A DNA stretch of 64,000 bases from Macrostomum lignano (lineage: Eukaryota): the NCBI GenBank assembly GCA_002269645.1, contig NIVC01000272.1:372001-436000 (forward strand), given 5' to 3'. The position numbers were made by a program, and so were the translations under genes. Shown here one piece after another: positions 38,013 through 62,368 of this stretch; position 1 is the first letter of the stretch, and every line of letters begins with the position of its first letter. The notes below the pieces were generated by a model, which saw only the letters and a program-made list of their open reading frames with translations, was not told the origin of the DNA and did no database searches.

Positions 38013-38544
38013 TGTGAATGAAGATTTAGTAGGACCGTTCGCTAAATTGTTATTTTAATATAAGTGCGCCTGCACTTGCTCCCCTCTCTGTCTAACCATC
38101 CACCTTATTGATCAGCGCCTCGGCCCCCCATGTACGCCAACCCCCTTCGTCCATCGCTTATCTTTTTCGATAAATGTACGTTCAACCCCCCTCTTCTGTG
38201 GTTCTGTTATCTACGCGAATCAATAAACTCGGCTAATAAGTTATTTAGGCTCGCGTGCGGGCTCTCTAGCTCCAGAACGCTCTCTCGTTAACTACAAACT
38301 TCTATTTAGCGTTCTCTACTTTATTTGCATGAAAAGTCACAACAGGACCTGCGCTGTGTATGTTGGCGAGACGTGGCCTATATATGTTATCGTAGACTAA
38401 TTGTAGTTTGCTCGGGAGTGTCGATGGTTATTGTTTGTGATAGGTGCGTAGAAACAATGTTTTTTGTGTGGCCATAATTGGTTGAAGGTAGGTGTTTACT
38501 ATTTATCATTATCTGAGTGATAGTAAATTGAGCTATGTTATTGT

Positions 38545-39147: not shown

Positions 39148-39179
39148 CTGGGGGATAAGGAAGGTACTGGTATACTTTA

Positions 39180-39737
39180 TTAATCTACTTCGTCGTACGT
39201 ATCGCCTTGCCAGGCTGTTAACTCACTGTACGTTACTAACATGGTTAAATCAGCATTTCGTTTAATAAGTATCGATAATATAGCGCAATGAAATGGGAGG
39301 CATGGTAATTCGCATGTTGATAAGTATCTTAAAAGACGTTGCTGAATACGTTGTAACGGGAAGAGTATTAGTTGGTGTCTATTATGATGTGCGTACATAA
39401 CGAGGTGCACATATGCCGAGCGAGAGTTTCTAGGAAATAGACAATCGTCTAGTCGACAAATAACGTCTATTGGAGCGAGTTAGTACGCAATGGTTTCAGC
39501 CAATTGAACCGTTTGTACCAGTTTTATACGTAGGAGTTGATCGCGCATTTGTACTAAGGAAAAAGGCATCGCATTCAGGGCACATAAGCAGTTTTCGAGC
39601 GGCTAGTTTCTTGGTACACTGCATGCATAGAAAATGTTCATTTTTACAGAACTTTTGGGTGCGCCATGATGTACAAATCATACATTGTCATAGGGCGCCA
39701 CGACATATGGGGCAGGCTTGCCAAAGTTGGATATGGT
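39180..39737 (-). pseudogene. RING paralog C (cassette 3), 5'-truncated by the neighbouring LTR
   Basis: Similar to 42624-43170; sequence switches to LTR at ...GGATATGGT|TGAAGAG. Confidence 0.85.
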
Positions 39738-40862
39738 TGAAGAGTTGATTCGGGAGGTGATCAGTCACCCGTAAACTCCCACTTCCAGACACTTAAGCCT
39801 GGGAACAAATTTAACGTGTGCACTTACTGTGGCGGGTTCTTCTTCTGTGTCGGGCAGGTTCTCCGAGCTTGTTCCTTGTTTCTTCTTTAATGCGCGCGTT
39901 TGTAGAGTTCGCTTCTTCCAATCTTCTTCTCCGGAGGAATCTTCTTGAAGTCTTCGAAGTCCAAAGTCGGCCGAGAGTGAGAGCAGAACAGTGAAGTCGA
40001 CGTCGAAATATCTCCTTGAGTGCGGGATTCAGTACGTTTCTCGAGTGCCAAATCAGTATCAACAGAGCGCCCTAATAAACTCGAATTCTAACGCGAGGTC
40101 CTCCAAAAGGGGCGTCATCTTTTAGATCTAACGGAATCGGAGTCGTGTGCTCCTATCTGTTAATCTAGGATAATCCAAATCAACAGTCAGTAATCCTCTA
40201 AGGGTATCGGAATCGGTCCGCAGATCCTATCCAATCCCTTAGGAAAATGGGAGGCCTCAAATAGTCTCAGTAAAGTCAACGGATCAGCAACGGCCGGCCG
40301 GCAATAAAATCGCTCTCAATTAATCAAAATAACGAAGACTTGAACAACACTTCACAATTGATACGCTTCTCTCCCAGAGATATAGCCTCGATTAGTTGCT
40401 CTAACTAACCACAAGATCTTTTGAGGCTGCTCCGAGTCTGAGGTTTCAGCTCGGATTTTACGTTTGTATTTATAGTCGAATTTTTTGTATATACTTAGTA
40501 GCGCGACTCATATTTCATCATATTTCATCAGATTTAATCTTATTTTATCATATTTCACCATAGTTGCAACATATTTCACCATAGTTGCAACATATTTCAC
40601 CATAGTTGCAACATATTTCACCATAGTTGCAACATATTTCACCATAGTTGCAACATATTTCACCATAGTTGCAACATATTTCACCATAGTTGCAACATAT
40701 TTCACCATAGTTGCAACTTGTCTCATGCTTCGTCGTACGTTGTATTCACGGTCTTAAAATAGAGTATGACAATTTTGCAATTTTTATAACATTCAAGTTT
40801 TTCGCTTTTTTATGTTACTACTTACAGTAGTTTACTTTGTATCGTATTTGGAGATCTCTACA
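39738..40862 (-). mobile_element. 3' LTR of the main RING-Gypsy element
   Basis: TGTAGAG...ACTCTTCA (TG...CA) directly after PPT 40863-40875; homologous to 6645-7620. Confidence 0.8.
40549..40717. repeat. 21-bp tandem repeat x8 inside the LTR U3
   Basis: CATATTTCACCATAGTTGCAA repeated; absent from the LTR at 6645-7620. Confidence 0.95.
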
Positions 40863-41161
40863 ATATCTCCTTTTTACGAAAAATTCGTCTCGAATTTGTT
40901 TTATAAGCTGAAGGGTTGAACTGGTGAATATTGTTTTATTTACATGGTTATTATAATAATTTTAAGCTGAGTATGTGAACAAGGAAGCAATTACATGCCA
41001 GATGCTAAGTAAGTTGGTGAAGACATAGTCATTGTCACTTATTGGGGAGAGTCAAAATATGAGTATACAAGATACATATGAGGGAGCAACACATACAAGC
41101 AAAACAGTTACGTAAGTAAATCAGTTAAAATAAGCAAGAGTACATGACAGTGTCACAATGT

Positions 41162-41768
41162 TTATTGAAAAATGTCCGTCGAAGTGCGCCGGATGTATCG
41201 TTGCGTTCGTGTCACCAAGATGGCGACTGGCCAGAACAGATGTTGTAGTGGGATGTAGTGGGAGCTATTCATCGTATTGGTTAGTTGGTTGTAGATGTCC
41301 TCCGCCGATCTAGGCGGTTCCGTAACCGCTTGTTGCCGGCCGAAAGCTAGCAGTCGCTGGCGTGCGTCGTGCAACTCGACCGGCAGCGGCCACTCTCAGA
41401 TATTGTCGGCGATTTCTCGTTCGGTGAATTGTTCCAGGTTATGCAGGCCCACCTCTGGCCAGATTTCGGTATTTTGGTTTAATTCTACTGTCGGGGGAAG
41501 GAGAGTGTCAAGGCAATTAGGGCAATAGGTGATACCACGTGCACCCAGCCTTTGCAGGCAGGTGAAGCAGCACCAGTGACGAGACTGGCACAGCTTCACC
41601 TGCGGATTGTCCCCGCAAAGGCTACACGCTATTAGGGGGGTCGCGACATAGTGGGCAAGTGGCTATCATGCCGGAGTCGACGCACCTGAAGCAGGTTTTG
41701 TGCCCGTATTGGCACATCACCTGCTGGTAGGTGGCCTCCAGGCAGACGGGGCATTCTACTTCAGGCAT
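41162..41768 (-). pseudogene. RING paralog A (cassette 4), frameshift/stop
   Basis: MPEVECPVCLEAT...CQYGHKTCFRC...CPLC; CQSRHWCCFTC...CPNC; helical tail. Confidence 0.85.
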
Positions 41769-41988
41769 TGTAAGGCAAGATATGGTAGCGTGGTAGGGTA
41801 GTTTCGTAGGGCGTGTGCTATGTATGTAGGCGAGTAGTGGCATATATATATATACTATATATGTAGACTAATTGTAGTGGACTCGGGTGTTTCGATGGTT
41901 ATTGTTTGTGATTGGTGCGTAGAAACAATGCTGTTTTCTATGTGGCCATAATTGGTGGAAGGTAGAGTCAATTGAGCTATGTGAATGT

Positions 41989-42590
41989 TTAGTAGCAAGA
42001 AGCAAAGTGGTCGTTGAGCGTTGTGATGAAGTAATTGTTGATACTTGCCGTTAGTAATGCTATGGGCCAAATGAGGTGTTGAACGGCTGTGTACTCCTGA
42101 GTGTTGGTCTCGTGAAGTAGGTTGAGGTAGATTTCCTCTGCAGGAAGGGCGTTTGTCGTCATGGCGTAATGTCGGGCCCGTTGAAACAAGAAGGTTAGCT
42201 GTGGCTGCCGGTTGTAGGGTATAGGCCACTCTCTGATGATCTGGGCAAGATCAGTTGTCCTTAAGTTGTTTAAGGTATCCGTCGTTAGCGTGATTATGTG
42301 GTCATTGTTGCCCGGGTGTCGATTAAGATTGGTTGAGCGCAGGTGACACACCTTGTAATGTTGTGTCACTGTATTGACATTACGCAGTCGTGGCATACTC
42401 AGTGCTTGTTTTCACAGAGTTGCCTTTGTGGGACTTCGTTGCACACTTGGCAGTTGGTAGGTGGTGCTCGGCACAGGGGGCACTTGTCCATCAGTTCTGT
42501 AGTGCAGCAGAGGAAACACAGCTTGTGTCCGTTCTGGCAGTAGACAAATGGTGTGATTTCTTCATCGTAGCACACGGGACATGTTTCCAT
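41989..42590 (-). pseudogene. RING paralog B (cassette 4), premature stop at ~42399
   Basis: METCPVCYDEEITPFVYCQNGHKLCFLC...CENKH*...IIREWP...EEIYLNLL. Confidence 0.85.
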
Positions 42591-42623
42591 CTGGGGAATA
42601 AGGGGAGGTACTGGTATACTTTA

Positions 42624-43292
42624 TTAATCGACTTTGTCGTACGTATCGCCTTGCCAGGCTATTAGCTCGCTATACTTTAATAACATCGTAAAATCGGCAT
42701 GCTTCTTAATAAGTAGGGGTATTATAGCACAGTGGAATGGAAGACTTGGCTGTTCGCATATTGATAGATACTGTAACAAACGTTGTTGAATTCGTTGTAA
42801 CGGGAAGAGTATTAGTCGGTGTCTATTATGATGTGCGTACATAACGAGGTGCACATATGCGGAGCGAGAGTTTCTAGGAAGGGGCCACTTGTCTAGTCGG
42901 CGAATAACGTCTATTGGAGCGAGTTGATGCACTATGGATGCAGATAACTGAACCGTTTGTACCGGTTGTATACGTAAAAGTTGGTCGCGCATTTTTACCA
43001 GAGGAAAAGCATCACATTCAGGGCACAGAAGCACTGATCGCTTAGCTAATTTCTTGATGCAACGCATGCATAGAAAATGTTCATTGGTACAGAACTTGTA
43101 GGTGCGCCATGATGTACAAATCATGCATTGGCGTAGAGCGCTTCGACACATGGGGCAATTTCGCCAGGGCTGGATATAATGAGCGTCACTGAGGCAAGTG
43201 CCGCATGTGCGGTGATTATTTACACATATACATGGCGGTTTCTTCGGAAGGTTGTCGTCTAGACAGACAGGGCATTCGAATTTTTTAGCCAT
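42624..43292 (-). CDS. tandem RING-RING protein, paralog C (cassette 4), intact 222 aa
   Basis: CPVC-x12-CVNNHRTCGTC-x12-CPMC then CMIC-x8-CTNEHFLCMRC-x11-CPEC, followed by LDKWP helical domain; starts ~106 bp after the pol stop. Confidence 0.9.
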   Translation of the reverse strand: MAKKFECPVCLDDNLPKKPPCICVNNHRTCGTCLSDAHYIQPWRNCPMCRSALRQCMICTSWRTYKFCTNEHFLCMRCIKKLAKRSVLLCPECDAFPLVKMRDQLLRIQPVQTVQLSASIVHQLAPIDVIRRLDKWPLPRNSRSAYVHLVMYAHHNRHRLILFPLQRIQQRLLQYLSICEQPSLPFHCAIIPLLIKKHADFTMLLKYSELIAWQGDTYDKVD

Positions 43293-43397
43293 TATTGTGT
43301 TTCAGTTGCTATAGATTTCTGTTGAGTCGCCTCTTACGACAAGCACAGTGAAGCTGTGGACTTATTCTTTCCCGAGTTCCACACGGGTGTTAGTAAT

Positions 43398-43712
43398 CTA
43401 GCGGGGTCTAAGGTTATAGGGGTGGTTAGTTATGGGAGTGTCCGTAGTTTGTGTTTCAGCGTGAGAAGTAGCAATATGTTTAGACGGTCTTTTTGTGTGA
43501 TTTTCATTGTTTAAATTTGGCAGAAATGTAGAGTCTGTGTTGATGCGTTTCAGTCGATGAATGTGCACGTAGAACTGCGGCTGATGTCGATCTTGGACAT
43601 TGGCCAGTTTGGCTGTGGTTGCCGAAGTCAGTGCTGATACACGAAATGGTCCTTTGTACTTTTGTGCGTGTTTGTGCGTCTGTTGTGCTGGATAGTGCAA
43701 ATAGACCATATC
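43398..43712 (-). pseudogene. pol: duplicated 3' end of Gypsy integrase
   Basis: Identical translation to the end of 51522-53768 (..HPYNLRPR*). Confidence 0.9.
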
Positions 43713-43721: not shown

Positions 43722-45079
43722 AACTCGGGTCACAAAGGGGGAGCTCCCCCGTGGGGGCACAGGAGGGCGACCCGACGGCAGACATTGAGTCCTGTGCCCC
43801 CACCTCGCACGCTAGTTTTTTGAAAATTGGCCCGGGTCCCCATCAGCGTGGGCTCGGGCTTCAGAGTGCGGCTGTGAGCACCTGCGGCACTGATGGGCGA
43901 AGCGGCAGTGAGTTCTGTTGCAGCCGCTAAGACTGTTGAAGTCGAAACAGACAGGTGGCTGCGTTCGCTTTTTAGGCGCTGTTGCGTTTATCATTTTTGT
44001 TGGTGCCATCAAGTGTGTTGCCACCAGACCCAGGTCTGCGCTAACAGCGCTCCACCGCGTTCCATCATGCTGGAGAAGCCGACATTCGTCATCATATCTC
44101 ATGACTTTAGTGCGATCGAAGCCTAAATCTAGCAGGTCACCAATTCTAGCGTTATGTCGGAGATGATCGATCAACTCGGATGAATCGATTCTGCCATCAA
44201 CAATGCGCAGCAGTTTGCCATCACGCAGCATTTGCACCAGTAAGTTACAGCTACCGGAGATGAAATCGCCAAACGACAGTGACTCGGGACTGACGTGTCT
44301 CAACCTCTCTGGCTTTGCCGCTCCCACAACAGACTGGCTTCCTTGTCTCCGCTTACGCTCACTGATAAAATCAACGACTCTGTACACCGCCGGCGCCTGA
44401 GCATGCGAAGTTGCAGCCCCAGCCTGCCCGAGTATACACTCGCCAACCAAATCATGCCACTCACCGGGAGTCTGATCACGTTCTCTCGCAGCCGCCGTGC
44501 CACTGTGACGCGCTTCAGCGAGCTCGGCTTCGAGCTGAGCCTCTCTTTTTTTCAGGTCCAGCAGCCGAATGCGCAGTTCAGTCTCTCGCAGCTGATCCTC
44601 GAGACCGCCTCCCGTCGCCGCCCGACCCTCGGCCGAGGCGCCCACCGCCGGAAGCATCTCGTCCTCAGGTGGAGCCAGACTTAGCTCGGGTGCGCCCGCA
44701 TTCGTCGGTGATGTCTTGTCATCTTGAGCACGACGAGATGAGCTTCTGTCCTGCTCCAACGCCTGCCGCTCAAGCTCCTTGGCAATGCTGAGTTTTAGAG
44801 GACTTGTTAGCTCTTGCTTATTGCCATTAGTAGGCAGGCCGCGCTCACTAAGGGCTTCTCGTAGCGCTTTGTTAGTTGCGGGCAGTACAAGGCTATCTGC
44901 CATGATTCAGCAAAAAAAATTCAACCGCGAGCAACCCCGCGCAGCCACAAAGGTGGCGGCCTAAAAAGGCACGCGCACGCACCAACGCACCCACCACCCC
45001 ACCAGACAGCCAGCACCCAAACAGCCCCCCTGCACTAACAGCGGTTAGCCCTCGCGGGCTCGCGCAAACCGATGCATTA
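43722..45079 (-). mobile_element. partial duplicate of the Ngaro element (A repeat, gag, first codons of RT)
   Basis: Near-identical to 49985-51342 with a few substitutions. Confidence 0.9.
43812..44903 (-). CDS. gag: Ngaro/DIRS gag-like ORF1, copy 2
   Basis: 363 aa, one residue different from 50076-51167. Confidence 0.8.
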   Translation of the reverse strand: MADSLVLPATNKALREALSERGLPTNGNKQELTSPLKLSIAKELERQALEQDRSSSRRAQDDKTSPTNAGAPELSLAPPEDEMLPAVGASAEGRAATGGGLEDQLRETELRIRLLDLKKREAQLEAELAEARHSGTAAARERDQTPGEWHDLVGECILGQAGAATSHAQAPAVYRVVDFISERKRRQGSQSVVGAAKPERLRHVSPESLSFGDFISGSCNLLVQMLRDGKLLRIVDGRIDSSELIDHLRHNARIGDLLDLGFDRTKVMRYDDECRLLQHDGTRWSAVSADLGLVATHLMAPTKMINATAPKKRTQPPVCFDFNSLSGCNRTHCRFAHQCRRCSQPHSEARAHADGDPGQFSKN

Positions 45080-45258
45080 TTTACACATATACATGGCGGT
45101 TTCTTCGGAAGGTTGTCGTCTAGACAGACAGGGCATTCGAATTTTTTAGCCATTATTGTGTTTCAGTTGCTATAGATTTCTGTTGAGTCGCCTCTTACGA
45201 CAAGCACAGTGAAGCTGTGGACTTATTCTTTCCCGAGTTCCACACGGGTGTTAGTAAT

Positions 45259-47034
45259 CTAGCGGGGTCTAAGGTTATAGGGGTGGTTAGTTATGGGAGT
45301 GTCCGTAGTTTGTGTTTCAGCGTGAGAAGTAGCAATATGTTTAGACGGTCTTTTTGTGTGATTTTCATTGTTTAAATTTGGCAGAAATGTAGAGTCTGTG
45401 TTGATGCGTTTCAGTCGATGAATGTGCACGTAGAACTGCGGCTGATGTCGATCTTGGACATTGGCCAGTTTGGCTGTGGTTGCCGAAGTCAGTGCTGATA
45501 CACGAAATGGTCCTTTGTACTTTTGTGCGTGTTTGTGCGTCTGTTGTGCTGGATAGTGCAAATAGACCATATCTCCGACTTGTAGCGTAGATGCGTTGTT
45601 GGTTGTTTTCGATGTTACCGTCTGGTTGTCAAGATTGTGTTTGGCAATTTGCCAAGCCAGGTGTAGTCTTGTTGCGAAGGTCTGGAGTGTCGACGGTGTT
45701 TCCACGTACTGAGATGGTAGTAATTGTTTTGCGAGTAGGCTGGGCGGTTGAAAATCTCGAGCGAACATCAAGAAGAATGGCGTGTTATCCGTTGACCGAT
45801 GTCTCGCGCTGTTGTATGCCATTGTTACCGCTTTCAAGTAGATGATCCAATCTTCTGGTTGCTTGTAGACATAGTGGGTCAGCATTTCGTGTAGATTGCG
45901 GTGAAATCTTTCTACTAAGTTTGCTTTGGGGTTGTAGGTAGACGTATATATTTGTTGTATGTTAAGCAGTTTTGCAGCCTGTTGAAATAGTTGTGAGGTG
46001 AACTGCGTTCCGTTGTCGGTGGTTAGAGTCTTGGGTGTTCCATACATACAGACAATCTCGTTGTAGAACGCCATAGCTACTGTTTCGGCGGTAATGTTCG
46101 GCAGTGGAATTGCTACAGCGAATTTCGAGAAGACGTCGAGAGCGGTGAGGATGTATGTGTAGTTGATCGAGTGTTGTCGTGCGGCAGGTAGTGGTCCCGA
46201 AATGTCGAGGGAGACGGTATCCCATGTTGTTGTTTTCGGTACTGTTTGTAGTTGTGGCTTTTGGCGTCGTCCCGTTTTTGCGGCTGCGCATGAGTGGCAT
46301 TCGTAGCAATATTTGCTGATGTCTTTGGTCATTGTCGGCCAAAAGTAGAATTTTGTCACTCGTTCGATTGTCTTCTTAGCGGAAAGGTGTCCGGCTAATG
46401 GCATGTCGTGCAATTCTTGCAAGATAGCGGCTCGAAACAAATATGGCAGATAGATTCGCGGAATATTGTCACAGATCCAATAAAGGATTGATTCTTTGAA
46501 GATTAGGTTGTCGCTCTGTTTTTTAAGGAATTTTCTTTCTTGTTTTGTTAATTTGGCGTGCTTGGCGTCGTCGTTGTTTTGTGCGGCTTTGTAGAAGTTG
46601 TCGTCTTGCTGTGCCGTAATCAGTTCTTGCATTTTCGGAATCGGATGGATAGCGTTGACTTCGTAAGCTCTGGAGAGTGCGTCTGCTGCTTTGTTGAGTG
46701 GTCCCGGTTTGTAGGCTAGTTGGAAGTTGTAATCCTGAATTTTGAGTGTCATTCGGATGAGGCGGTTGTTAGTCTGTCCTTTCGTCATGACAATGTGTGT
46801 CAGCGGTGCATGGTCGGTTCTGAAAATTGTCGGTAATGGAGAACCGTAGATGTAGTAGTGAAACTGTCGTAGTGCGAACAGGATTCCAAGTAATTCTCTT
46901 TCTGTGGCGGACCATTTGGTTTCGTTTAGTCGTAGAGCTCGACTGATGTAGACGATGGGTTTTTCGACTTGTCTTTCCGTTTCTTGCAGTAGAACTGCGC
47001 CTAGTCCACTTCCTGAGGCGTCGGTTTCAATGAT
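45259..47034 (-). pseudogene. pol: duplicated Gypsy RNaseH-integrase segment, followed by a RING-C 5' stub (45080-45153)
   Basis: IETDASGSG, TDHAPL, NKAADALSR, HHCC finger, DDE motifs; near-identical to 51522-53297. Confidence 0.92.
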
Positions 47035-47371
47035 CAACCGCGAGCAACCCCGCGCAGCCACAAAGGTGGCGGCCTAAAAAGGCACGCGCACGCACCAACG
47101 CACCCACCACCCCACCAGACAGCCAGCACCCAAACAGCCCCCCTGCACTAACAGCGGTTAGCCCTCGCGGGCTCGCGCAAACCGATGCATTAGTGAAGGG
47201 GAGGCAAAGACAAAGACAAACCGAGTGCGGCGATGGAGAGGCAGCGAAAAGCCAGAGGATGCAACCCCAAGGCCAAACAAACAAATGAATGAACGAAGGA
47301 GAGAATTTACGAAACGGCGGAAATAAGGCTGGGGATAAGAACGGAAATAAAACTTTGAACACAAGCAAAAG

Positions 47372-48418
47372 TTATTCAAAGGCAACCTCGTTAAAAGCAC
47401 CAGCAAAACGCGAACCAGCCCGCACAGAATCAGCAGATGGAAGGTAGGCAGTCACAGCATCACTTCGCCAGTCACCGATGCACTTCACCTCTTGAACAGA
47501 TAGTCCGAGACGGTAGGCCCAGGTGGCACCACCTCTGCGCAGGCTGTGCGCTGAGAAAGAACGAGCGTCCTGCTCAGCCGTTGCTAGGCAGCGCTTGAGG
47601 AACCTGTCGAATCTTGAGGCAGACAGGACAACAGAGGATCCGCTCGCCAACTGGTAGGAGAACACAGGCTGCCTGCAGCCAAGCTTGCTGACACGGAGGT
47701 GACCCTCTAGCGCAGCCACTGGGCAAAGCGGATGTCCTTCTTTTAGCCTTGGAAGCAACACCCGGTGCAGCTTCGCGCCGAACTGATTCGTTTTGCCATA
47801 ACTGACAGAGAGCACAACCCCCTTCGGGTGGCGTTGAAAGGCTGAGACGGAAATCGGTGAAGCGGACTGCTGGCTGGGCAGGAGACTGGAGCGCCGAAAC
47901 ATCCCCCACCAAGCAATAAGCGTCACAAGCCAGCAGACTCTGTCAAGCGAACTGCTCGAGTTAAGCCGGTTTTTCACAGACAGCAGCATCGCAGGCGAGA
48001 TCGGCAGCTTCCGTCTTGGTCGCTGGCCCATCCTCCGTTTAGCGCCGCGAACGAGCAGTGAGACCAGGTGGTGTTTTGTTAGGTCCTCAGCACCACAGGC
48101 TTTGAACCAGCTGGACAGTGCACTGACATGGACACGCAGACTGTTGAACGATCTCAGGCGGCATTCGACTAGGTGAGCCAGGTAGTTGAGTAGCACCGAC
48201 CGGTCGGATCGAGCCGGGTTGGTCCCGTTCTCGTTGCAGAAGCTGTGCCAGGACCGGACGGCCGATGAGATCGCCCTGCGTGACTGCGGTGCGTATGCTG
48301 CGGCGAGGAGGCTGGAGGCGGCGGCGCCGAGGGTCGGCGTTGCAGGGAGGCGGCCTGTGAAAATAAAAAACGGGAGGCAAAAACAGAAAACGCGTGATCC
48401 GAAAACTCCACAGGGCAA
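47372..48418 (-). CDS. tyrosine recombinase (YR)
   Basis: GMFRRSSL, YGKTNQ, CPVAAL, SAHSLRRGGATWA, IGDWRSDAVTAY. Confidence 0.93.
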   Translation of the reverse strand: MPCGVFGSRVFCFCLPFFIFTGRLPATPTLGAAASSLLAAAYAPQSRRAISSAVRSWHSFCNENGTNPARSDRSVLLNYLAHLVECRLRSFNSLRVHVSALSSWFKACGAEDLTKHHLVSLLVRGAKRRMGQRPRRKLPISPAMLLSVKNRLNSSSSLDRVCWLVTLIAWWGMFRRSSLLPSQQSASPISVSAFQRHPKGVVLSVSYGKTNQFGAKLHRVLLPRLKEGHPLCPVAALEGHLRVSKLGCRQPVFSYQLASGSSVVLSASRFDRFLKRCLATAEQDARSFSAHSLRRGGATWAYRLGLSVQEVKCIGDWRSDAVTAYLPSADSVRAGSRFAGAFNEVAFE

Positions 48419-50067
48419 ACTGGTACAGACCCGTAAACACGGAAAATAAAATTAAGCAACTCATGACGCGAGTGCAGGCGGGACCCTGCATCAGCAAACA
48501 GCTGATAAGCACCAGGAACGTGAAAGACCTCAAAATCAACGTCAAAACGCAGACAGAGCAACGCCACAGACTGCAGCAACCACATCAGACGCGAGTCCTT
48601 GGAGACACCTCGCCTTAGAATCCAACACGCCGTCTCATTGTCGCAGTACACAGCAAGCCGACAACCAGCCAAGGATTGGCCCCATCTCAAAACAGCCAGC
48701 AATATAACCACAGCCTCCTTGTAATTGATGCAGTAATTCTGAAAAACACCATTTGCGTCGATCTGCCAGTCAATAAAGCACCAATCACGAATCCCATCAC
48801 CGTCACGGAGCACCGCCGCGGCGCCTGAAGACGACGAGTCAGTCTCTATGGCAACACAAGCCCTCGGCGAAGTCCACAGGCCAACACCGATGCGATGCTG
48901 CAAAGCCAACCGCCACCAGGAGAGGTGGTGCACCATGGAGGGACTAACAAGAACCCTGTCATGAGGCCGATGCAGCTTGTTAACAATGTCGATAAGAGGT
49001 CGGAGGAAAACTCTCCCGTGCCGAACAACTTGCGACGCCCAGTTTAACTTGCCGATCAACTTCTGCAAACACGACTTTGACAGCCTTTTCTTCGAAGAGC
49101 AGAGAGATAAAACATGCAACAAGTCTTGGACTTTTTCGGCAGGAAGAGACATCTGGCCTGCCACGCTATCAAATAAAATGCCCAGAAAGGTCATCCGCGT
49201 TGTCGGCGGAACACACTTGCTACGGTTAACGGTGAAGCCTAGCCGCTCGAGCAGATCGATGAGATGGTTGTAGAACTTCCAGCAGGACTCCAGATCTCCA
49301 CAAAAGGCGAAGTCATCCATGTAGGCCTCCATAGCGTAGAAACCATGCTTCAACATCATAAAACGCACAGCTTGGCTCAGCTCGTAAAAGCAGAAGACGG
49401 AAGCCGAAGCACCAAACGGGAGCCGCGTGTCGTACAGGTACACTGGCTGGCCCTCGCCTTGGAGCTGAATCTTCATGCCTGTGACCCGGTGGTCATCAGG
49501 GTGCACACCACATGAACGATATGCTTGCGACAGATCCACTTTGCACATGTACGCGCCGCTGTACAGCTTCGAGGCAAAGTTGCTGGCCGAAGTAAAACGC
49601 AACTTCCGTTTCGACTCAAAGAAATCATTCACAGAGGCGCCAGTTGGCAGGCTGCAGTCGTGAATAAGGCGGATGGAAGACGAATCCGCCTTAGGGATCG
49701 CACCAAGTGCACTAACGATGAGCGGCCGATTGCCTGCCTGGCAGCGCCTGTAGCGGTCCTGCTTGAGCTCCTGGCGCACCTGGGCCTCAACAGCTTGCTG
49801 GTGAATGGTAGCTGATCTGTGATTTGCCATCTCAGTGTGGTTCTTACAATCCATCACTTTATTAGTAATTCGAAAGCCATTCTTCACACCATCGAGCACG
49901 AACCTGACACGGTCCTCCGGCATCTCGGTCCCAGCCAGCTCTTCCCGCCAAACCGCAAACACAAGGTCGCTCGACAACTCAGTTGAACTCGGGTCACAAA
50001 GGGGGAGCTCCCCCGTGGGGGCACAGGAGGGCGACCCGACGGCAGACATTGAGTCCTGTGCCCCCAC
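48169..50067 (-). CDS. pol: DIRS/Ngaro reverse transcriptase-RNaseH
   Basis: RLIHDCS, KVDLSQAY, LPFGASAS, YMDDF, FLGI; RNaseH IETDSS, INYKEA, YCDN, ADAGSR; overlaps YR as is typical of this group. Confidence 0.93.
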   Translation of the reverse strand: MGAQDSMSAVGSPSCAPTGELPLCDPSSTELSSDLVFAVWREELAGTEMPEDRVRFVLDGVKNGFRITNKVMDCKNHTEMANHRSATIHQQAVEAQVRQELKQDRYRRCQAGNRPLIVSALGAIPKADSSSIRLIHDCSLPTGASVNDFFESKRKLRFTSASNFASKLYSGAYMCKVDLSQAYRSCGVHPDDHRVTGMKIQLQGEGQPVYLYDTRLPFGASASVFCFYELSQAVRFMMLKHGFYAMEAYMDDFAFCGDLESCWKFYNHLIDLLERLGFTVNRSKCVPPTTRMTFLGILFDSVAGQMSLPAEKVQDLLHVLSLCSSKKRLSKSCLQKLIGKLNWASQVVRHGRVFLRPLIDIVNKLHRPHDRVLVSPSMVHHLSWWRLALQHRIGVGLWTSPRACVAIETDSSSSGAAAVLRDGDGIRDWCFIDWQIDANGVFQNYCINYKEAVVILLAVLRWGQSLAGCRLAVYCDNETACWILRRGVSKDSRLMWLLQSVALLCLRFDVDFEVFHVPGAYQLFADAGSRLHSRHELLNFIFRVYGSVPVCPVEFSDHAFSVFASRFLFSQAASLQRRPSAPPPPASSPQHTHRSHAGRSHRPSGPGTASATRTGPTRLDPTGRCYSTTWLT

Positions 50068-50075
50068 CTCGCACG

Positions 50076-51167
50076 CTAGTTTTTTGAAAATTGGCCCGGG
50101 TCCCCATCAGCGTGGGCTCGGGCTTCAGAGTGCGGCTGTGAGCACCTGCGGCACTGATGGGCGAAGCGGCAGTGAGTTCTGTTGCAGCCGCTAAGACTGT
50201 TGAAGTCGAAACAGACAGGTGGCTGCGTTCGCTTTTTAGGCGCTGTTGCGTTTATCATTTTTGTTGGTGCCATCAAGTGTGTTGCCACCAGACCCAGGTC
50301 TGCGCTAACAGCGCTCCACCGCGTTCCATCATGCTGGAGAAGCCGACATTCGTCATCATATCTCATGACTTTAGTGCGATCGAAGCCTAAATCTAGCAGG
50401 TCACCAATTCTAGCGTTATGTCGGAGATGATCGATCAACTCGGATGAATCGATTCTGCCATCAACAATGCGCAGCAGTTTGCCATCACGCAGCATTTGCA
50501 CCAGTAAGTTACAGCTACCGGAGATGAAATCGCCAAACGACAGTGACTCGGGACTGACGTGTCTCAACCTCTCTGGCTTTGCCGCTCCCACAACAGACTG
50601 GCTTCCTTGTCTCCGCTTACGCTCACTGATAAAATCAACGACTCTGTACACCGCCGGCGCCTGAGCATGCGAAGTTGCAGCCCCAGCCTGCCCGAGTATA
50701 CACTCGCCAACCAAATCATGCCACTCACCGGGAGTCTGATCACGTTCTCTCGCAGCCGCCGTGCCACTGTGACGCGCTTCAGCGAGCTCGGCTTCGAGCT
50801 GAGCCTCTCTTTTTTTCAGGTCCAGCAGCCGAATGCGCAGTTCAGTCTCTCGCAGCTGATCCTCGAGACCGCCTCCCGTCGCCGCCCGACCCTCGGCCGA
50901 GGCGCCCACCGCCGGTAGCATCTCGTCCTCAGGTGGAGCCAGACTTAGCTCGGGTGCGCCCGCATTCGTCGGTGATGTCTTGTCATCTTGAGCACGACGA
51001 GATGAGCTTCTGTCCTGCTCCAACGCCTGCCGCTCAAGCTCCTTGGCAATGCTGAGTTTTAGACGACTTGTTAGCTCTTGCTTATTGCCATTAGTAGGCA
51101 GGCCGCGCTCACTAAGGGCTTCTCGTAGCGCTTTGTTAGTTGCGGGCAGTACAAGGCTATCTGCCAT
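50076..51167 (-). CDS. gag: Ngaro/DIRS gag-like ORF1 with N-terminal SAP-like motif and C-terminal CCCH/CCHC finger
   Basis: LREALSERGLPTNGNKQELTSRL; CFDFNSLSGCNRTHCRFAHQCRRCSQPH. Confidence 0.82.
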   Translation of the reverse strand: MADSLVLPATNKALREALSERGLPTNGNKQELTSRLKLSIAKELERQALEQDRSSSRRAQDDKTSPTNAGAPELSLAPPEDEMLPAVGASAEGRAATGGGLEDQLRETELRIRLLDLKKREAQLEAELAEARHSGTAAARERDQTPGEWHDLVGECILGQAGAATSHAQAPAVYRVVDFISERKRRQGSQSVVGAAKPERLRHVSPESLSFGDFISGSCNLLVQMLRDGKLLRIVDGRIDSSELIDHLRHNARIGDLLDLGFDRTKVMRYDDECRLLQHDGTRWSAVSADLGLVATHLMAPTKMINATAPKKRTQPPVCFDFNSLSGCNRTHCRFAHQCRRCSQPHSEARAHADGDPGQFSKN

Positions 51168-51342
51168 GATTCAGCAAAAAAATTCAACCGCGAGCAACCC
51201 CGCGCAGCCACAAAGGTGGCGGCCTAAAAAGGCACGCGCACGCACCAACGCACCCACCACCCCACCAGACAGCCAGCACCCAAACAGCCCCCCTGCACTA
51301 ACAGCGGTTAGCCCTCGCGGGCTCGCGCAAACCGATGCATTA

Positions 51343-51416
51343 TTTACACATATACATGGCGGTTTCTTCGGAAGGTTGTCGTCTAGACAGACAGGGCATT
51401 CGAATTTTTTAGCCAT
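51343..51416 (-). pseudogene. RING-C 5' stub interrupted by the Ngaro element
   Basis: MAKKFECPVCLDDNLPKKPPCICVNN then Ngaro A1. Confidence 0.85.
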
Positions 51417-51521
51417 TATTGTGTTTCAGTTGCTATAGATTTCTGTTGAGTCGCCTCTTACGACAAGCACAGTGAAGCTGTGGACTTATTCTTTCCCGAG
51501 TTCCACACGGGTGTTAGTAAT

Positions 51522-54500
51522 CTAGCGGGGTCTAAGGTTATAGGGGTGGTTAGTTATGGGAGTGTCCGTAGTTTGTGTTTCAGCGTGAGAAGTAGCAATA
51601 TGTTTAGACGGTCTTTTTGTGTGATTTTCATTGTTTAAATTTGGCAGAAATGTAGAGTCTGTGTTGATGCGTTTCAGTCGATGAATGTGCACGTAGAACT
51701 GCGGCTGATGTCGATCTTGGACATTGGCCAGTTTGGCTGTGGTTGCCGAAGTCAGTGCTGATACACGAAATGGTCCTTTGTACTTTTGTGCGTGTTTGTG
51801 CGTCTGTTGTGCTGGATAGTGCAAATAGACCATATCTCCGACTTGTAGCGTAGATGCGTTGTTGGTTGTTTTCGATGTTACCGTCTGGTTGTCAAGATTG
51901 TGTTTGGCAATTTGCCAAGCCAGGTGTAGTCTTGTTGCGAAGGTCTGGAGTGTCGACGGTGTTTCCACGTACTGAGATGGTAGTAATTGTTTTGCGAGTA
52001 GGCTGGGCGGTTGAAAATCTCGAGCGAACATCAAGAAGAATGGCGTGTTATCCGTTGACCGATGTCTCGCGCTGTTGTATGCCATTGTTACCGCTTTCAA
52101 GTAGATGATCCAATCTTCTGGTTGCTTGTAGACATAGTGGGTCAGCATTTCGTGTAGATTGCGGTGAAATCTTTCTACTAAGTTTGCTTTGGGGTTGTAG
52201 GTAGACGTATATATTTGTTGTATGTTAAGCAGTTTTGCAGCCTGTTGAAATAGTTGTGAGGTGAACTGCGTTCCGTTGTCGGTGGTTAGAGTCTTGGGCG
52301 TTCCATACATACAGACAATCTCGTTGTAGAACGCCATAGCTACTGTTTCGGCGGTAATGTTCGGCAGTGGAATTGCTACAGCGAATTTCGAGAAGACGTC
52401 GAGAGCGGTGAGGATGTATGTGTAGTTGATCGAGTGTTGTCGTGCGGCAGGTAGTGGTCCCGAAATGTCGAGGGAGACGGTATCCCATGTTGTTGTTTTC
52501 GGTACTGTTTGTAGTTGTGGCTTTTGGCGTCGTCCCGTTTTTGCGGCTGCGCATGAGTGGCATTCGTAGCAATATTTGCTGATGTCTTTGGTCATTGTCG
52601 GCCAAAAGTAGAATTTTGTCACTCGTTCGATTGTCTTCTTAGCGGAAAGGTGTCCGGCTAATGGCATGTCGTGCAATTCTTGCAAGATAGCGGCTCGAAA
52701 CAAATATGGCAGATAGATTCGCGGAATATTGTCACAGATCCAATAAAGGATTGATTCTTTGAAGATTAGGTTGTCGCTCTGTTTTTTAAGGAATTTTCTT
52801 TCTTGTTTTGTTAATTTGGCGTGCTTGGCGTCGTCGTTGTTTTGTGCGGCTTTGTAGAAGTTGTCGTCTTGCTGTGCCGTAATCAGTTCTTGCATTTTCG
52901 GAATCGGATGGATAGCGTTGACTTCGTAAGCTCTGGAGAGTGCGTCTGCTGCTTTGTTGAGTGGTCCCGGTTTGTAGGCTAGTTGGAAGTTGTAATCCTG
53001 AATTTTGAGTGTCATTCGGATGAGGCGGTTGTTAGTCTGTCCTTTCGTCATGACAATGTGTGTCAGCGGTGCATGGTCGGTTCTGAAAATTGTCGGTAAT
53101 GGAGAACCGTAGATGTAGTAGTGAAACTGTCGTAGTGCGAACAGGATTCCAAGTAATTCTCTTTCTGTGGCGGACCATTTGGTTTCGTTTAGTCGTAGAG
53201 CTCGACTGATGTAGACGATGGGTTTTTCGACTTGTCTTTCCGTTTCTTGCAGTAGAACTGCGCCTAGTCCACTTCCTGAGGTGTCGGTTTCAATGATAAA
53301 GGGTTTTTGGAAGTTTGGATGTTGCAGTAAGGCGTCGGTCGTCAGTTGCTGTTTGATCTTTTCGAAGCTTTCTTGTTGTTCGTCCTTCCAGTTTTCTTCT
53401 TTCCACTTTGGTTGTTTGAGCAGTTCGTATAGCGGTTTGGCAGTTTTGGCAAAGTTTGGCAGAAACTTTCGGAAATACTGTGCTAGTCCTAGAAAGGACT
53501 GCAATTTTGTTATAGAGGTTGGTCGTGGGAATTTCTTTACTTTCTCCACATTACTTGGATCTGGTGAGATTCCTTTTGCGGATACGTGGTGTCCCAAGTA
53601 TCGTACCGAGCTTCGGCAAAACTTGCACTTGGTGGGTTGTAGTTTGAGACTTTGTCGCCTGAGAAGGAATAATGCGAGTTCCATCATTTGAAGTAGTTGT
53701 TCGAAGTCTTCTCCGAAGGCAAGAATATCGTCTACATAGTGGAGTAGATTGGTACATCCAGCAAGCATGTAGGCTGTTAGTCAGCTCATTGTAGCAGGTG
53801 AGTTTGAAATTCCCATAGGACTTCTTTGGTAAGCGAAGACTTCTCCATTGTACGTCTTAAAGGCTGTGTATTGCTTAGACTCTTCTTCTAGTTCGATTTG
53901 CCAAAATCCATGTCGTAGATCAAAGACTGTGAAGAGTGTCGCTGTGTTGAGTCTCGCCATTAGTTCCGAAATCTTGGGTAGGCTTTGTTGATCTGTCGGG
54001 ATATACTTGTTTAGGACTCGAAAATCGCAGACAAGTCTTCTCTCGTTTGTGTCCTTCTTCTCGACAAGCAAGCATGGAGAGGAATAGGCTGAAACTGTCC
54101 TCTTGATGATACCGGCTTTGAGCATTTTCTCGATGATCTCGTCGAAGTGTTGTTGTAGATGTTTTGCAATCGGATACGGTTTGCACTGAATCGGTTCCTG
54201 GTGCGGCAGCAGTGTGATCTTCTGTTTGATGTCTTTGGCTCGTCCAATGTCGTAGTCGTGGTGGCAGAAAACATCGTTGTACTTCCATACAAGATCTTTA
54301 ACTTGGTTCTTTTGTTCTTCGGTGATCGGACTTTGTGACAGATCGATTTGTTCTAGGAATTGTTGCCTTGGCAATGTTGTCGATGTTGATTGAATAAGCA
54401 TCACTGACGCTTGTGTGCTGAGATGTCCGATGCAGGTTCCTGCGTAGATTCTCACTGGGTGCTTGTTAGGATTGACGATTTGTACCGGAATCGTTTTGTC

Positions 54501-54545
54501 GGCTGTGATTAGTACCAGTGCTGTGGGGATGAGGATTTCGTTGTT
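51522..54545 (-). pseudogene. pol: Ty3/Gypsy pol (RT-RNaseH-IN); protease missing; one in-frame TGA at 53781-53783
   Basis: IPVQIVNP...GTCIG linker, PCLLVEKK...RLVCDFRVLN, DLRHGFWQI, YVDD, FLGLAQYFRKF, IETD, HHCC, DDE, YNLRPR*. Confidence 0.95.
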
Positions 54546-56468
54546 CTATTAAACTTCAGTTGAAGATCCGACATTTCGTAGGTTTCATCAACAATGGCTT
54601 GTGATTTCGAGATGTTCTTGATGTCTCCTGTTGGCGAAATTTGATGTAGTAGATCGTTCACGTTGAAATAGTTGGCCGAATTGGTACATGGTCGTGGAAT
54701 GGCAGTTCCGACAATGATGTTGTGGACCGTATCCAAAAATCCTCGAATTCGCTTTCCATTGTAGAAGGCTTCGATCCGCGGTTTGTCGTAGCAAGTTGTT
54801 GACGTGTTTGATGACAAGATGTTAAAGTGATGGATCAGAGTACACTTGTAGATTAGCAAGTATCCATAAACCGGAACGGCGAGGAAATCTTCAATTCCTG
54901 TGATCTTCCTGAAGGTGGTCGTAGGGTTGACGTAGTAGTTCTGTCGCGTGTAGTTTAGACTGGTCTCGTGCATTCGACATGTCAGTTTGACCATGGAGCG
55001 ATGCAGATAGTTCAGTTGCTTGTGCAGTTTGTGTTCCATCGCGGCTAGTTTTGCTGCCAGAAGTCGTGCTGATACTAACGAAGGCTTATCCAGGTTTCGC
55101 TTTTGTCTTTCCAAGGTTTCTTCTCTTGGATAGGTACCATTTATCACCTTCAAAAATACATTCTTGTCCATGTCCTTCAGTGCAATTGGTATTTCTTGGT
55201 CAGATAGGATTAGTTGTTCATTGTTTTCCTTGCATTTCAGTTGTGTATAGCTTGGTTGCTTTGGAAAGGTAAGAGCTAGATCTCCAGAGTCGGCAAGGAA
55301 GGTGTTAGATAGCAGTTTTCTTTGAACAGTATGGTATTTCTGTAGTTTGCAGTCAATTTCAGTTTTGACTTCCCATGCGATGAAGTATTTGCGAGTTCGA
55401 CTCGGTTCTTTGTATCGAGAATCCGATCTGTACTCGATTTGGTATCGATAGTCATGGAAATAATTCGGAGCTAGCGGTAAGTTTTGAGCTTCCTCTTTGT
55501 TGTAGTTAGGAGTAGCACAATATCCTGAGCTGTAGTGGCATTGGTCAAGCGGTAGTTGCAAGGATTCCATGTTTTCGAAAGGATTGTGGTAGAACAAGAC
55601 GTTTAAAATCAGATAGCTGTTGTAGACAGTATACAGAGGCCATCGTGCTGCGTGGTAGTGCACATATCTTCCTTCGGCTACGTTGTTGGTGCGGAATAGT
55701 TGCGCTCCGCTTGCTGAAGTGTCGTGGAGCTTCAATTCACCGTCTTTGGAAAACAGGGTTTGGTTCCACTGCATGGAGGCTTTCTTCATGTGATACCTTC
55801 ATCGATGTTTGCCAATATCTGATTCGGTTCCATTGTACCAACCAAATCTTTTCGAGTTCGTCTTTGTCTCTAAAGCACAAAATTCCCATCTGTCGATGCT
55901 TCTTTGTATTCGCTTTGTAGATGTCGATTGTAAGCGGTAGCGGCTTTGTTTGATTCGTCTTAAAATAACTGCATTTGATTTCCGTAGGAATTTTGTAGAT
56001 GACAGGCTGGATGGTAGCGTCTGTAGGACAAATCATTGGTACTGAAGTTGAAGTTACCAGTGGTAGCAGGATGAGAAGGATCATCGCAAATAACCATTTC
56101 ATTAGAGGGTGTCTCTTCTTGCTCTTCTTCGGCATCGGCATACTTTCTTCTTGTTCTCCTTTCTTGTTGGAGTGACTTGTGATCGTGGTTTCGTCCAGTT
56201 CCTCGTAGTCGTTTTCTGGTTCTTCAGATGGAGTGATGTCTTGTGGACGGAAGAACCATTTTCTTGAGTGTGGTACTGGTGTTAGAGGTTCCTGATACGC
56301 TGGTGGGTGACACGCTGTAGGGTGTCTTCGAAAGGTACCCATGAATTCTGGTCGAGTCGGCGTAGAAGAAGTCTGTTGATGCAGTTCTCCGACATTCATC
56401 GTAACGTAGGTGTTATCTTCTGTTTGAGTGAATCGATTGCATGTGAAGTGGAACGGTTGGGTGTTCAC
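54509..56468 (-). pseudogene. env: envelope-like glycoprotein, class III (herpes gB/chuvirus-like) type; frameshift ~55790, C-terminus and TM missing
   Basis: Signal-like MKWLFAMILLILLPLVTS followed by VPMICP; CHYSSGYC; furin-like RQKR at 55097-55108; heptad-like helix then C...NPTTTFRKITGIEDFLAVPVYGYLLIYKC and CYDKP...GFLD...PC; several NxS/T sites. Confidence 0.72.
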
Positions 56469-56536
56469 AGCTTTGTTTGTCCGTTTCCGTTTTCAGCATT
56501 AAGAATTGTAGCAAGATTCTCGTATTCCGGTTCGGA

Positions 56537-57736
56537 TTATTGTACCGTTGGAGATGGTAACATGTAGTCGGTATCTTCAAAGAGAGTATCACGTACGTTG
56601 ATACTGAAATCTGGTGTTAATTCTTCTACCGAAAATTTTGGTTCGATAGCCTGTTGTTCACTGGCCTGTGGTTCAATGGCCTGTGTGTACTGTCTATGCA
56701 CCTGCGTTGGCTGCCTTGGTGGAGCGGGTCGGCGTGGGTTGTAAGGTACCATCGTATTGTTAGGGCGGTTATCCCGCCATGGTGGTGGTCGATTATTCAT
56801 CCGATTTCTGTTTGGTGGATATTGTTGGTTTGGATAGCGTGACCAGTTTTCTCGTCTGTTTCCACCGGAATAATTTCGTGGTTGATTCTGGCGCAAGTTT
56901 TGGCGGCAATCTCTGTAGTAATGACCTACTCTTCCACAATTGTGACAAGTAACGTTTCGAGGGTTGCTTTGCTGCGGGCGCATTGCAATTGCTGCGGCTT
57001 GGTGTTGTTGCATAAGTTTGCTTAATTGTTCTGCTAATTGTGCGGTGTCACTAGTGCGGTTAGCTAGAAGAGGTGCGCTTGCCTCCCACTGCATTCCACA
57101 GCGGAGTAACTGTTCTTCTGTCTCAATTGTTTCTCGCAGGAGTCTATCTCGCAAGGCAGGTTGAGCGTTGTTAATGACATTAAGAATTAGACTTTGCTTT
57201 TGATCTGCAAGCCGTTGTCTTTCTCTAGCAGCTGCTTCTGCTGGTCCAAGGGGTTGAGCTGCTGCTGCTGGTTGCGGTTGCTGTTGATGCAAGGCTTTGA
57301 TGATTTGTCGAATATCATCGACAAAGGTGAGGAATGATTCCGTGGGTGTCATTTTCCGGTTATGTAATTTATGTAACAACACCGATCGATTGGTTCCGCA
57401 TCGTGCGAACTGTGTTCGAAGTTGGGTAATCATGGCATGGTAATCTCGTTGTGTAACTGCATCTAATTTTCCATAAATTTCTCGGGCTGTGCCTTGTAGC
57501 AATGGAGGGAGGAGTAGCGCCTTTTCTGGATTTTGTAATCCATATTCCCTTGATACCAAATCAAAGTGGTCAATGAAGGTCGCAAAATCTTTGTCCATAG
57601 TGTAAGATACGACTGTCTCTTCTTTGTCTCTCTTCTTGTCTATGACCTCTCTTCTCTCTCTCTCTCTACCTCTCTCTTTATCGATTTTCCTCCCCAGCGT
57701 TATCGCCTTTAAATATTTTGACGGCAATTCGGGCAA
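56537..57736 (-). CDS. gag: Ty3/Gypsy gag with CCHC zinc knuckle
   Basis: FIDHFDLVSREYG...LLQGTAREIY capsid-like segment, RKMTPTESFLTF, CHNCGRVGHYYRDC; the 5' end is affected by a GA-rich tract. Confidence 0.9.
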   Translation of the reverse strand: MPELPSKYLKAITLGRKIDKERGRERERREVIDKKRDKEETVVSYTMDKDFATFIDHFDLVSREYGLQNPEKALLLPPLLQGTAREIYGKLDAVTQRDYHAMITQLRTQFARCGTNRSVLLHKLHNRKMTPTESFLTFVDDIRQIIKALHQQQPQPAAAAQPLGPAEAAARERQRLADQKQSLILNVINNAQPALRDRLLRETIETEEQLLRCGMQWEASAPLLANRTSDTAQLAEQLSKLMQQHQAAAIAMRPQQSNPRNVTCHNCGRVGHYYRDCRQNLRQNQPRNYSGGNRRENWSRYPNQQYPPNRNRMNNRPPPWRDNRPNNTMVPYNPRRPAPPRQPTQVHRQYTQAIEPQASEQQAIEPKFSVEELTPDFSINVRDTLFEDTDYMLPSPTVQ

Positions 57737-57905
57737 ATAAACTATACTCGAATATGAGTACTTCCCTGACGAAGAGTAACCTTACTCGAAATATCGGTAA
57801 CATTAACTATTTCGAAGTAAATTGACTTTTATCAGTCCTTTCACCGTGTCAGCGCCTGGGATTGGATGTGCGTTCCTCTCTCTCTGTCTGCCTGTTTGTC
57901 TTGGT

Positions 57906-58262
<357 letters not shown>

Positions 58263-58833
58263 TTCGCCTCATTCCAATCAACTTGCAGAAGCTGAATGCT
58301 TTGAAATCTTAAAATAATACGAGTAGTTCTTTCGAATGAGTCAATGCTCTTGCACCGCTTCAACTGTAATCAGGTATTGATTTTCTGTTTTTCTTGACTT
58401 AAACTACTCGTCTTTGCATTTTTGCTCTCTGTCTCAGACCAAGGGACTTAGCTGAGGCGGCAGTTTGCATTCGAATTGCACATTTACTGCCAGTAGCTCC
58501 GCGGCCCAAAGCTCGTTGCAATTAATGTACAGTTGGTTTAGACAGAAGCCTCTTACATGTAAGTCGTTTCCCTTTATAAATTTACAAGGAAATTCTTTCC
58601 TCACAAAGCATTACTAATAAATAATACAATTTATTAACTTCTGGCGATTTGTGATTGCTTCCCTTTAATGCTCAATGGTACAGTGCTTGTTTTAGGGATT
58701 TTTAATACGCCATCATAACTGCACTCTTCCCCTCAAGCAGCTTCTCAATTCATGACAATTTGGCACATTGTATTATTCTCGAGCCTACTAGATATGCATA
58801 CTGAATAGAATACACTTGGACTGGCAATTAGCG

Positions 58834-61800: not shown

Positions 61801-62368
61801 ATGCTTTTAAATCTGCGATTCAATAACAGCAGTGATGCTTTTAAATCTGCGATTCAATAACACCAGTGATGCTTTTAAATCTGCGATTCAGTAACAGCAG
61901 TGATGCTTTTAAATCTGCGATTCAATAACAGCAGTGATGCTTTTAAATCTGCGATTCAGTATATGCTTTTAAATCTGCGATTCAGTAACAGCAGTGATGC
62001 TTTTAAATCTGCGATTCAGTAACAGCAGTGATGCTTTTAAATCTGCGATTCAGTAACAGCAGTGATGCTTTTAAATCTGCGTGATGCTTTTAAATCTGCG
62101 ATTCAGTAACAGCAGTGATGCTTTTAAATCTGCGATTGCAGTGATGCTTTTAAATCTGCGATTCAGTAACAGCAGTGATGCTTTTAAATCTGCGATTCAG
62201 TAACAGCAGTGATGCTTTTAAATCTGCGATTGAGTAACAGCAGTGATGCTTTTAAATCTGCGATTGAGTAACAGCAGTGATGCTTTTAAATCTGCGATTC
62301 AGTAACAGCAGTGATGCTTTTAAATCTGCGATTCAGTAACAGCAGTGATGCTTTTAAATCTGCGATTC
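58834..62368. repeat. 34-bp satellite, about 104 copies
   Basis: TCTGCGATTCA(G/A)TAACAGCAGTGATGCTTTTAAA head-to-tail, with occasional shortened units near the right end. Confidence 0.98.

Follow-up and report, generated by a model that had tools for sequence, protein, structure and literature searches.

The Ty3/gypsy retrotransposons of Nematoda, Bryozoa and Platyhelminthes carry only envelope (Env) proteins of the glycoprotein B (gB) type and are arranged in the order GAG-ENV-POL, according to the text of a recent study (Chary & Hayashi, eLife 2026, PMC13524379). One entry in its lists is Platyhelminthes_Rhabditophora_Mlig_errantivirus_2, from Macrostomum lignano (16 copies). The text also remarks on ectodomains that have a transmembrane (TM) segment on either side, refers to Sacco et al. 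(2022; doi 10.1099/jgv.0.001739) for env lying ahead of pol in nematode elements, and states that Env expression and the spread of gB-carrying retrotransposons are unknown (PMC13524379). The element considered here lies in a 64,000-nucleotide (nt) stretch of M. lignano DNA (contig NIVC01000272.1 of assembly GCA_002269645.1, positions 372,001 to 436,000), referred to as the window. A gag-env-pol order with a gB-type env is already published, and the window holds a decayed copy of a further subfamily within the described class. It is almost certainly a dead Ty3/gypsy copy of a natively gag-env-pol family from which one deletion has removed about 1.07 kb.

On the minus strand of the window the order is gag, a low-complexity spacer, a signal segment, the glycoprotein and pol. 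This is what a sequence-only reading of the window had described, and neither Pfam nor tblastn revealed a pol remnant between gag and env. Pfam found no protease in the window copy either. The tblastn query, P0001, is the protein of an unbroken relative. It matches the window over amino acids (aa) 33-359, 498-724 and 727-1137 and then jumps to 1498-2503, where the window pol is 82.5% identical to it. The parts are as follows, with reverse transcriptase abbreviated as RT.

56537..57631, minus strand: gag remnant with a capsid-like helical domain (Pfam zf-CCHC, E 1.6e-4; 68% identical to P0001 aa 33-359)
56906-56947, minus strand: the single CCHC knuckle of gag (Pfam)
56488..56539, minus strand: decay lesions at the gag/spacer border, a premature TAA at 56537-56539 and a one-base frameshift at ~56490
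56130..56487, minus strand: acidic, Pro/Thr-rich spacer from Gag to Env, read from the sequence; the most variable part of the polyprotein
56043..56129, minus strand: basic patch and hydrophobic segment, a putative internal signal (anchor) before Env (counterpart at aa 617-635 of P0001 and P0002)
54540..56042, minus strand: gB-type (class III) glycoprotein ectodomain, ending before the TM segment (88% identical to P0001 aa 727-1137)
~55780, minus strand: frameshift within env
55097-55108, minus strand: furin-like RQKR in the glycoprotein
54539..54547, minus strand: deletion junction, ~1.07 kb gone, out of frame (P0001 aa 1138-1497 unmatched)
51522..54545, minus strand: pol, with the remaining linker, RT, RNase H, and H2C2 plus integrase core (Pfam RVT_1, RT_RNaseH, Integrase_H2C2, rve)
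53781-53783, minus strand: stop within RT
53727-53738, minus strand: YVDD of RT
51768-51776, minus strand: GPF motif of pol

The low-complexity leader reported earlier between gag and the glycoprotein corresponds to the acidic spacer. The TAA and the frameshift said to follow gag are both there, but they are separated by ~50 nt (56537-56539 to ~56490) and not by the 68 nt claimed. At the other end of env the glycoprotein stops at LQLKFN (54548-54565), its hydrophobic TM segment lost in the deletion; the pol frame, which starts at 54545 (NNEILIPTALV), has no protease motif. Both points agree with the first reading. What has gone from this point? The closest two-LTR (long terminal repeat) relative among the matches listed, on contig C391, is collinear with the window at 90.5% identity on the gag-env side and 92.7% on the pol side. 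It has ~1,070 nt extra at the junction, whose reading frame, shared with env and RT, encodes the env tail, a TM segment, a Pro-rich tail and a protease with the motif LDSGS; in the coordinates of this relative, the deletion joins 133242 to 134313. The window has therefore lost, at ~54540, the membrane-proximal part of Env, the TM segment, the cytoplasmic tail, the protease (PR) and the start of the PR-RT linker (~1.07 kb, ~360 aa). The earlier proposal that one deletion took the env tail and the protease from a native gag-env-pol element is borne out by this comparison.

Is gag-env-pol the native order? The genome was searched with window positions 54300-56800, which gave 40 scored matches out of 101 candidates. 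Two relatives of a second subfamily, on C717 (2,503 aa) and C583 (2,502 aa), each run as one uninterrupted frame. Their Pfam order is CCHC (258), fusion (965-1092), protease (1329-1427), RT, RNase H and integrase (IN), and their full content is Gag-signal-Env-TM-PR-RT-RNase H-IN. The sequence-only reading had predicted that intact copies would show the env TM, then protease, then this RT, and 26 of 30 RT-anchored loci do, running from the C-half of env through TM, protease and linker to RT (three others are the deleted locus and one has nothing upstream). Anchoring on gag instead (30 loci), env comes next in 25, and five are short gag-only elements that run into an LTR. The contrary order, gag-pol-env, was not seen among the family relatives examined, nor was any member with this gag and this RT but with env after integrase among the relatives and loci examined.

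The spacing from gag to the linker tells the same story. It was taken at 70 of 81 family-level RT places, those with a nearby gag match (11 with no nearby gag match or a partial match were left out), and is 4,137-4,445 nt in 65 of them, 3,076-3,079 nt in the three deleted copies and longer in two. No env-less gag-pol sister using this RT was found among these 70 places and no spacing falls under 3.0 kb; here the spacing is informative and the count of 70 out of 70 is not, the places having been chosen by a nearby gag match. At 11 of the 81 places, the frame with the gag match is as long as the frame with the RT match, 2,400 aa or more. Contigs of sequencing runs X1 and X5 (two studies) span the TM segment and the protease motif, and all eight two-LTR elements examined have TG...CA LTRs that are 99-100% identical and 4-bp target duplications. 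At least three subfamilies occur in this one genome (the window with C391; C717 with C583; and C1006, C30 and C32), and the order is common to all three, the window/C391 subfamily being only 68-72% identical in DNA to the third. Because intact relatives, RT- and gag-anchored loci, spacing and young two-LTR copies all bear on it, the gag-env-pol order is native.

The family layout is thus an LTR, one long open reading frame (ORF) encoding Gag-spacer-signal-Env-TM-tail-PR-RT-RNase H-IN, two RING-like ORFs and an LTR. In other words, env is an in-frame part of one polyprotein and no separate gene. In the C391 and C717 elements the two RING-finger-like ORFs follow integrase and precede the 3' LTR (L032:2907-4250; L039:7-1420), with Sina_RING/C3HC4 matches that are mostly under the cut-off and with none for one ORF. 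In the window, this end of the element has the following features.

47034..51342, minus strand: DIRS-like tyrosine-recombinase element, a later insertion into the first accessory (RING) ORF and foreign to the family (SAP-gag, RT/RNase H and Phage_integrase ORFs; 159-nt terminal repeats)
43722..47037: tandem duplicate (3.3 kb) of 49986-53300, taking in the integrase end and part of the DIRS-like element (99.8% self-match)
40863..43712, minus strand: 3' accessory region with RING-finger-like ORF(s), one of them at 42624-43301 (88.9% identical to C391 137027-140049; weak Sina_RING/C3HC4 matches, mostly under the cut-off)
39738..40862, minus strand: 3' LTR (TG...CA) with a purine tract ahead of it (92-96% identical to the C391 LTR)

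The 5' LTR, the leader and the gag start are absent from the window copy, and the sequence upstream has no match to the C391 LTR. With its 5' LTR gone, a stop and frameshifts in its coding sequence and a DIRS-like element inserted, this copy is dead.

The deletion junction is present at three places in the genome, on C272 (the window), C4067 and C4009, and all three have one upstream flank in common. It therefore records a single event at one locus and not a spreading sub-element. The C4009 copy, 97.5% identical, has neither the DIRS-like insertion nor the tandem duplication, and the deletion is therefore older than both. One out-of-frame deletion came first; the locus was then duplicated or diverged into three assembly copies, and the DIRS-like element was inserted. 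An assembly artefact at the junction was ruled out, the same junction being found on three contigs, one of them only 97.5% identical. The TAA is shared by the three copies, and the frameshift at ~56490 is found in the window and C4067 only. Relatives read the gag/env border in one frame, and the two lesions are therefore signs of decay and not recoding signals. Programmed read-through or frameshifting at this border was rejected, C4009 lacking the frameshift and the relatives lacking either lesion. As for how the deletion formed, template switch or end joining at a microhomology of ~6 nt is a possibility, and C717 has a 6-nt word of the junction on both sides.

Shortened relatives of the family also exist. 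A non-autonomous derivative of the C717 subfamily keeps gag and the N-half of env in a 1,031-aa open frame, the rest being gone up to the integrase end. This gag-envN derivative is found on C2869, C1192, C525, C352 and C301 (L009, L011-L014; L085, L086, L088, L091, L094), with different flanks in 5/5, and its joint is present in three of the four sequencing runs compared. Gag-only elements have ~290 gag codons between two LTRs (C3022, C70 and C1130; L089, L090, L093) and occupy different sites in 3/3. Two further gag-only elements, of another type, are on C40 (L095, L096) and have one flank in common. It is possible that gag-only elements act as Gag donors or as restriction factors. A more distant family (C247, C270, C1672 and C4280) has single frames of 2,859-2,866 aa with gag and RT matches, and a named 2,859-aa protein, from a cluster with env before protease, equals one of these frames in length.

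Judged by its sequence, the family is a Ty3/gypsy (Metaviridae) LTR retrotransposon. Its Pol order is PR-RT-RNase H-IN, of which the window copy keeps RT-RNase H-IN. Among solved structures the RT is closest to Ty3 (E 3e-60 and 9e-60; next E 2e-42; retroviral RTs E 2e-38 or weaker), a ranking by structure matches and not by a reference tree, from a library that may be missing BEL/Pao and copia RTs. The eight two-LTR relatives all have a primer-binding site (PBS) and a purine tract; the window keeps its 3' LTR only. The PBS of C391 (C391 129310-129327; L031:4811-4830) differs from those of other subfamilies and may correspond to tRNA-Trp. A Gag CCHC is found in the window and in unbroken relatives. 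The top named ESM Atlas clusters for Gag are Retrotrans_gag (score 0.90-0.91, a lead only), and its single-sequence model has low confidence (predicted local distance difference test, pLDDT, 50.6) and no fold match.

Profile and fold comparisons identify Env as a gB-type (class III) glycoprotein. A profile of 25 ectodomain relatives was compared with PDB sequences and 16/16 listed matches were herpesvirus gB (best E 2e-12). The ectodomain model (pLDDT 72.6) matches Epstein-Barr virus and herpes simplex virus gB in Foldseek at E 1e-20 to 1e-19 (best Epstein-Barr virus gB, E 1.4e-20). The best viral fold match is a nyavirus glycoprotein (E 3e-23), alongside glycoproteins of other negative-strand viruses (BFVD). 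The glycoprotein is cysteine-rich. By simple Kyte-Doolittle hydropathy, exactly two hydrophobic peaks flank the ectodomain in P0001/P0002, at aa 617-635 (hydropathy 2.06) and 1218-1236; basic residues precede the first, and the second is deleted in the window. More distant env relatives number 74, of which 24, mostly the longest and some possibly gene models rather than single frames, were scanned. Protease follows env in one chain in 12 of the 24, and a gag marker, env and protease share one chain in six. Protease lies ahead of env in two, RT or IN ahead of env in none, and two have no Pfam match.

Synonymous divergence (dS) between the window and C391 is 0.19-0.36 in seven of eight regions (gag, spacer, N-half of env, linker, RT, RNase H and IN). 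Since gag, env and pol of the window have similar dS, a foreign pol is unnecessary. The ratio of nonsynonymous to synonymous divergence (dN/dS) is 0.05-0.14 in env and 0.29-0.44 in the spacer, the least constrained part of the polyprotein.

How might such a polyprotein work? Its anatomy suggests that it would cross the membrane of the endoplasmic reticulum twice. Gag would remain cytoplasmic, tethered to the internal signal anchor, and signal peptidase would cut at the first hydrophobic segment, freeing the Env N-terminus in the lumen. The second segment would be a stop-transfer TM, leaving protease, RT and integrase in the cytoplasm on the Env tail. Budding would then enclose Gag and Pol and expose a class III fusogen, protease would release RT and IN, and furin would cut Env. 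Passage of the particle from cell to cell would follow, and its complementary DNA would integrate with a 4-bp target duplication. Purifying selection on env (the dN/dS above) is the only pointer to infectious entry, and an indirect one. A wider proposal is that the element is still mobile and infectious from cell to cell; that its particle is built unlike that of retroviruses, signal peptidase splitting the two-pass polyprotein into anchored Gag and Env-TM-Pol; that the enzymes are packaged at a fixed 1:1 via the fusogen tail; that gag-only and gag-envN satellites, whose frames have stayed open, supply extra Gag or act as restriction factors; and that the RING ORFs are E3-ligase counter-defence. 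As a joint claim this is tentative, and somewhat doubtful.

Several observations do not sit easily with the account given so far. The C-half of env is the eighth region in the comparison with C391, and its dS is 0.74 (proportion of synonymous differences, pS, 0.47 versus 0.17-0.28 elsewhere). Env is also less diverged than gag and pol between the window subfamily and C717 (pS 0.54-0.61 versus 0.70-0.87, spacer and tail left out), a difference that is not seen in the comparison with the third subfamily. Exchange of env segments among family members is probable and leaves the order untouched, and the window copy may itself be mosaic on a local scale. The whole ectodomain model scores low against gB (TM-score 0.24-0.32 in PDB, up to 0.46 in BFVD). 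The Pfam Monjiviricetes_fusion match on the window glycoprotein (E 1.9e-4) is under the cut-off, as is the fusion match in unbroken relatives. The domain-by-domain check covered two long frames only (C717 and C583), and the microhomology present at the junction against C717 is absent against C391. Finally, the two-pass polyprotein with Pol on the cytoplasmic tail of Env is purely predicted, along with its expression, cleavage, particles and cell entry.

A rival reading keeps the native order but derives the enzymes from a conventional Gag-Pol precursor, with env spliced out or another recoding step used, so that Pol would not be carried on Env. copia splices, and Ty3 and human immunodeficiency virus frameshift. 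One frame yields Gag, Env and Pol at 1:1:1, odd for elements that require excess Gag, and XXXYYYZ heptamers do occur in frame (e.g., at aa 286, right after the CCHC), although chance also yields such words. However, two translated copies keep Env, signal and TM in the frame of Gag and Pol, and the chains of distant relatives described above (12/24 with protease after env, 6/24 with gag marker, env and protease) also speak against skipping env. No GT..AG joint skipping env was listed when contigs of runs X1, X5, X11 and X15 were compared with C717; the RNA status of these contigs is guessed and one joint was unseen, so this counts neither way. On balance, a separate Gag-Pol precursor is rather unlikely.

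The sequence-only reading had offered a chimera as its alternative, in which the gag-env and pol parts come from two different elements joined by recombination. The junction is indeed abrupt and out of frame, and synonymous divergence varies along env, which hints at exchange between members of the family. Nevertheless, both sides of the junction are collinear with the same C391 element at similar dS, and the three subfamilies have one order. The alternative is superfluous, C391 being the closest relative of the window gag, env and pol alike. A chimera of unrelated parents is largely refuted and very improbable, and in a variant with two near-identical family members as parents the layout would stay unchanged. 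Least credible of all is a deleted copy that functions as a non-autonomous element or supplies the host with a secreted Env fragment: other internal-deletion derivatives have moved (the 5/5 gag-envN and 3/3 gag-only elements with different flanks), but this one is a single locus with one flank at all three places, has no 5' LTR, and carries a stop and a frameshift before the signal, a frameshift in env and a stop in RT.

The copy lies within a cluster of mobile elements. The family has left further pieces (integrase, RING ORFs, LTRs) nested in this cluster at window positions 6649-11964 and 35008-39737. A Polinton/Maverick-like element occupies ~12100-27950, with long inverted repeats on both sides and genes for a protein-primed DNA polymerase B with an endonuclease VII domain, a deoxynucleoside kinase and a dUTPase, plus a weak TBP-like ORF. 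Tandem repeats are found at 31081-31676 (an array with a 30-nt unit) and at 58700-62300 and 57840-58260 (a 34-nt satellite of ~96 copies and a (CTGT)n tract).

Drosophila gypsy/ZAM errantiviruses and BEL/Pao elements with viral glycoproteins are, like this family, LTR retrotransposons that carry a viral fusogen. In gypsy/ZAM and BEL/Pao (Anakin, Tas, Atlas) env follows integrase, and the insect gypsy env is F-type and made from spliced RNA. In contrast, the present family has a Ty3-like Pol and, inside the long frame, a gB-type env. The nematode endogenous retroviruses (NERV) reportedly join gag-env-pro-pol in one continuous ORF and also have further ORFs and a nyamivirus-like glycoprotein, so that a single frame is probably already in print. 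NERV was described from nematodes, whereas the present family is from a flatworm. Within M. lignano, the closest named protein to this Env is A0A0M4HFM6/ALD16272 ('retrovirus-related polyprotein'), 61% identical in env; PAA86625 (2,852 aa) is 28% identical there. Both have the Env C-half, TM, PR, RT, RNase H and IN in one chain, as here, under labels (retrotransposon polyprotein or hypothetical protein) that do not recognise env.

A literature search on the gag-env-pol order gave only one paper that bore on it, PMC13524379; PMC11889832 had no bearing on the subject, and in the accessible text of PMC12801592 the whole words 'env', 'glycoprotein' and 'RING' were not found. The errantiviruses of PMC13524379, as its text presents them, and the family here have the same order, a gB-type Env, a Ty3/gypsy Pol, LTRs and many young copies. 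Uninterrupted ORFs and multiple young copies are true of the family and not of the dead window copy. None of the terms 'polyprotein', 'splic', 'frameshift', 'RING' and 'accessory' appears in the text of PMC13524379, whose figure supplements and sequence archive may hold more, and the Env of Mlig_errantivirus_2 is not in its supplementary alignment table. Seven of the eight relatives here have a PBS whose exact reverse complement is the 12-nt PBS given for Mlig_errantivirus_2, and the LTR spacing of that element, 9,727, is near the 9,606-9,626 of the third subfamily (C1006, C30, C32), a likeness judged by PBS and spacing. The window subfamily has another PBS and is only 68-72% identical in DNA to the third subfamily. 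By itself the deleted copy is ordinary decay. If true, the two-pass polyprotein would be a way to assemble an enveloped retroelement particle that needs neither an env RNA of its own nor frameshifting from Gag to Pol. Beside the known systems, the family, whose close relatives include some named from a laboratory flatworm, is a clean example, young and present in many copies, of the gag-env-pol class described recently.

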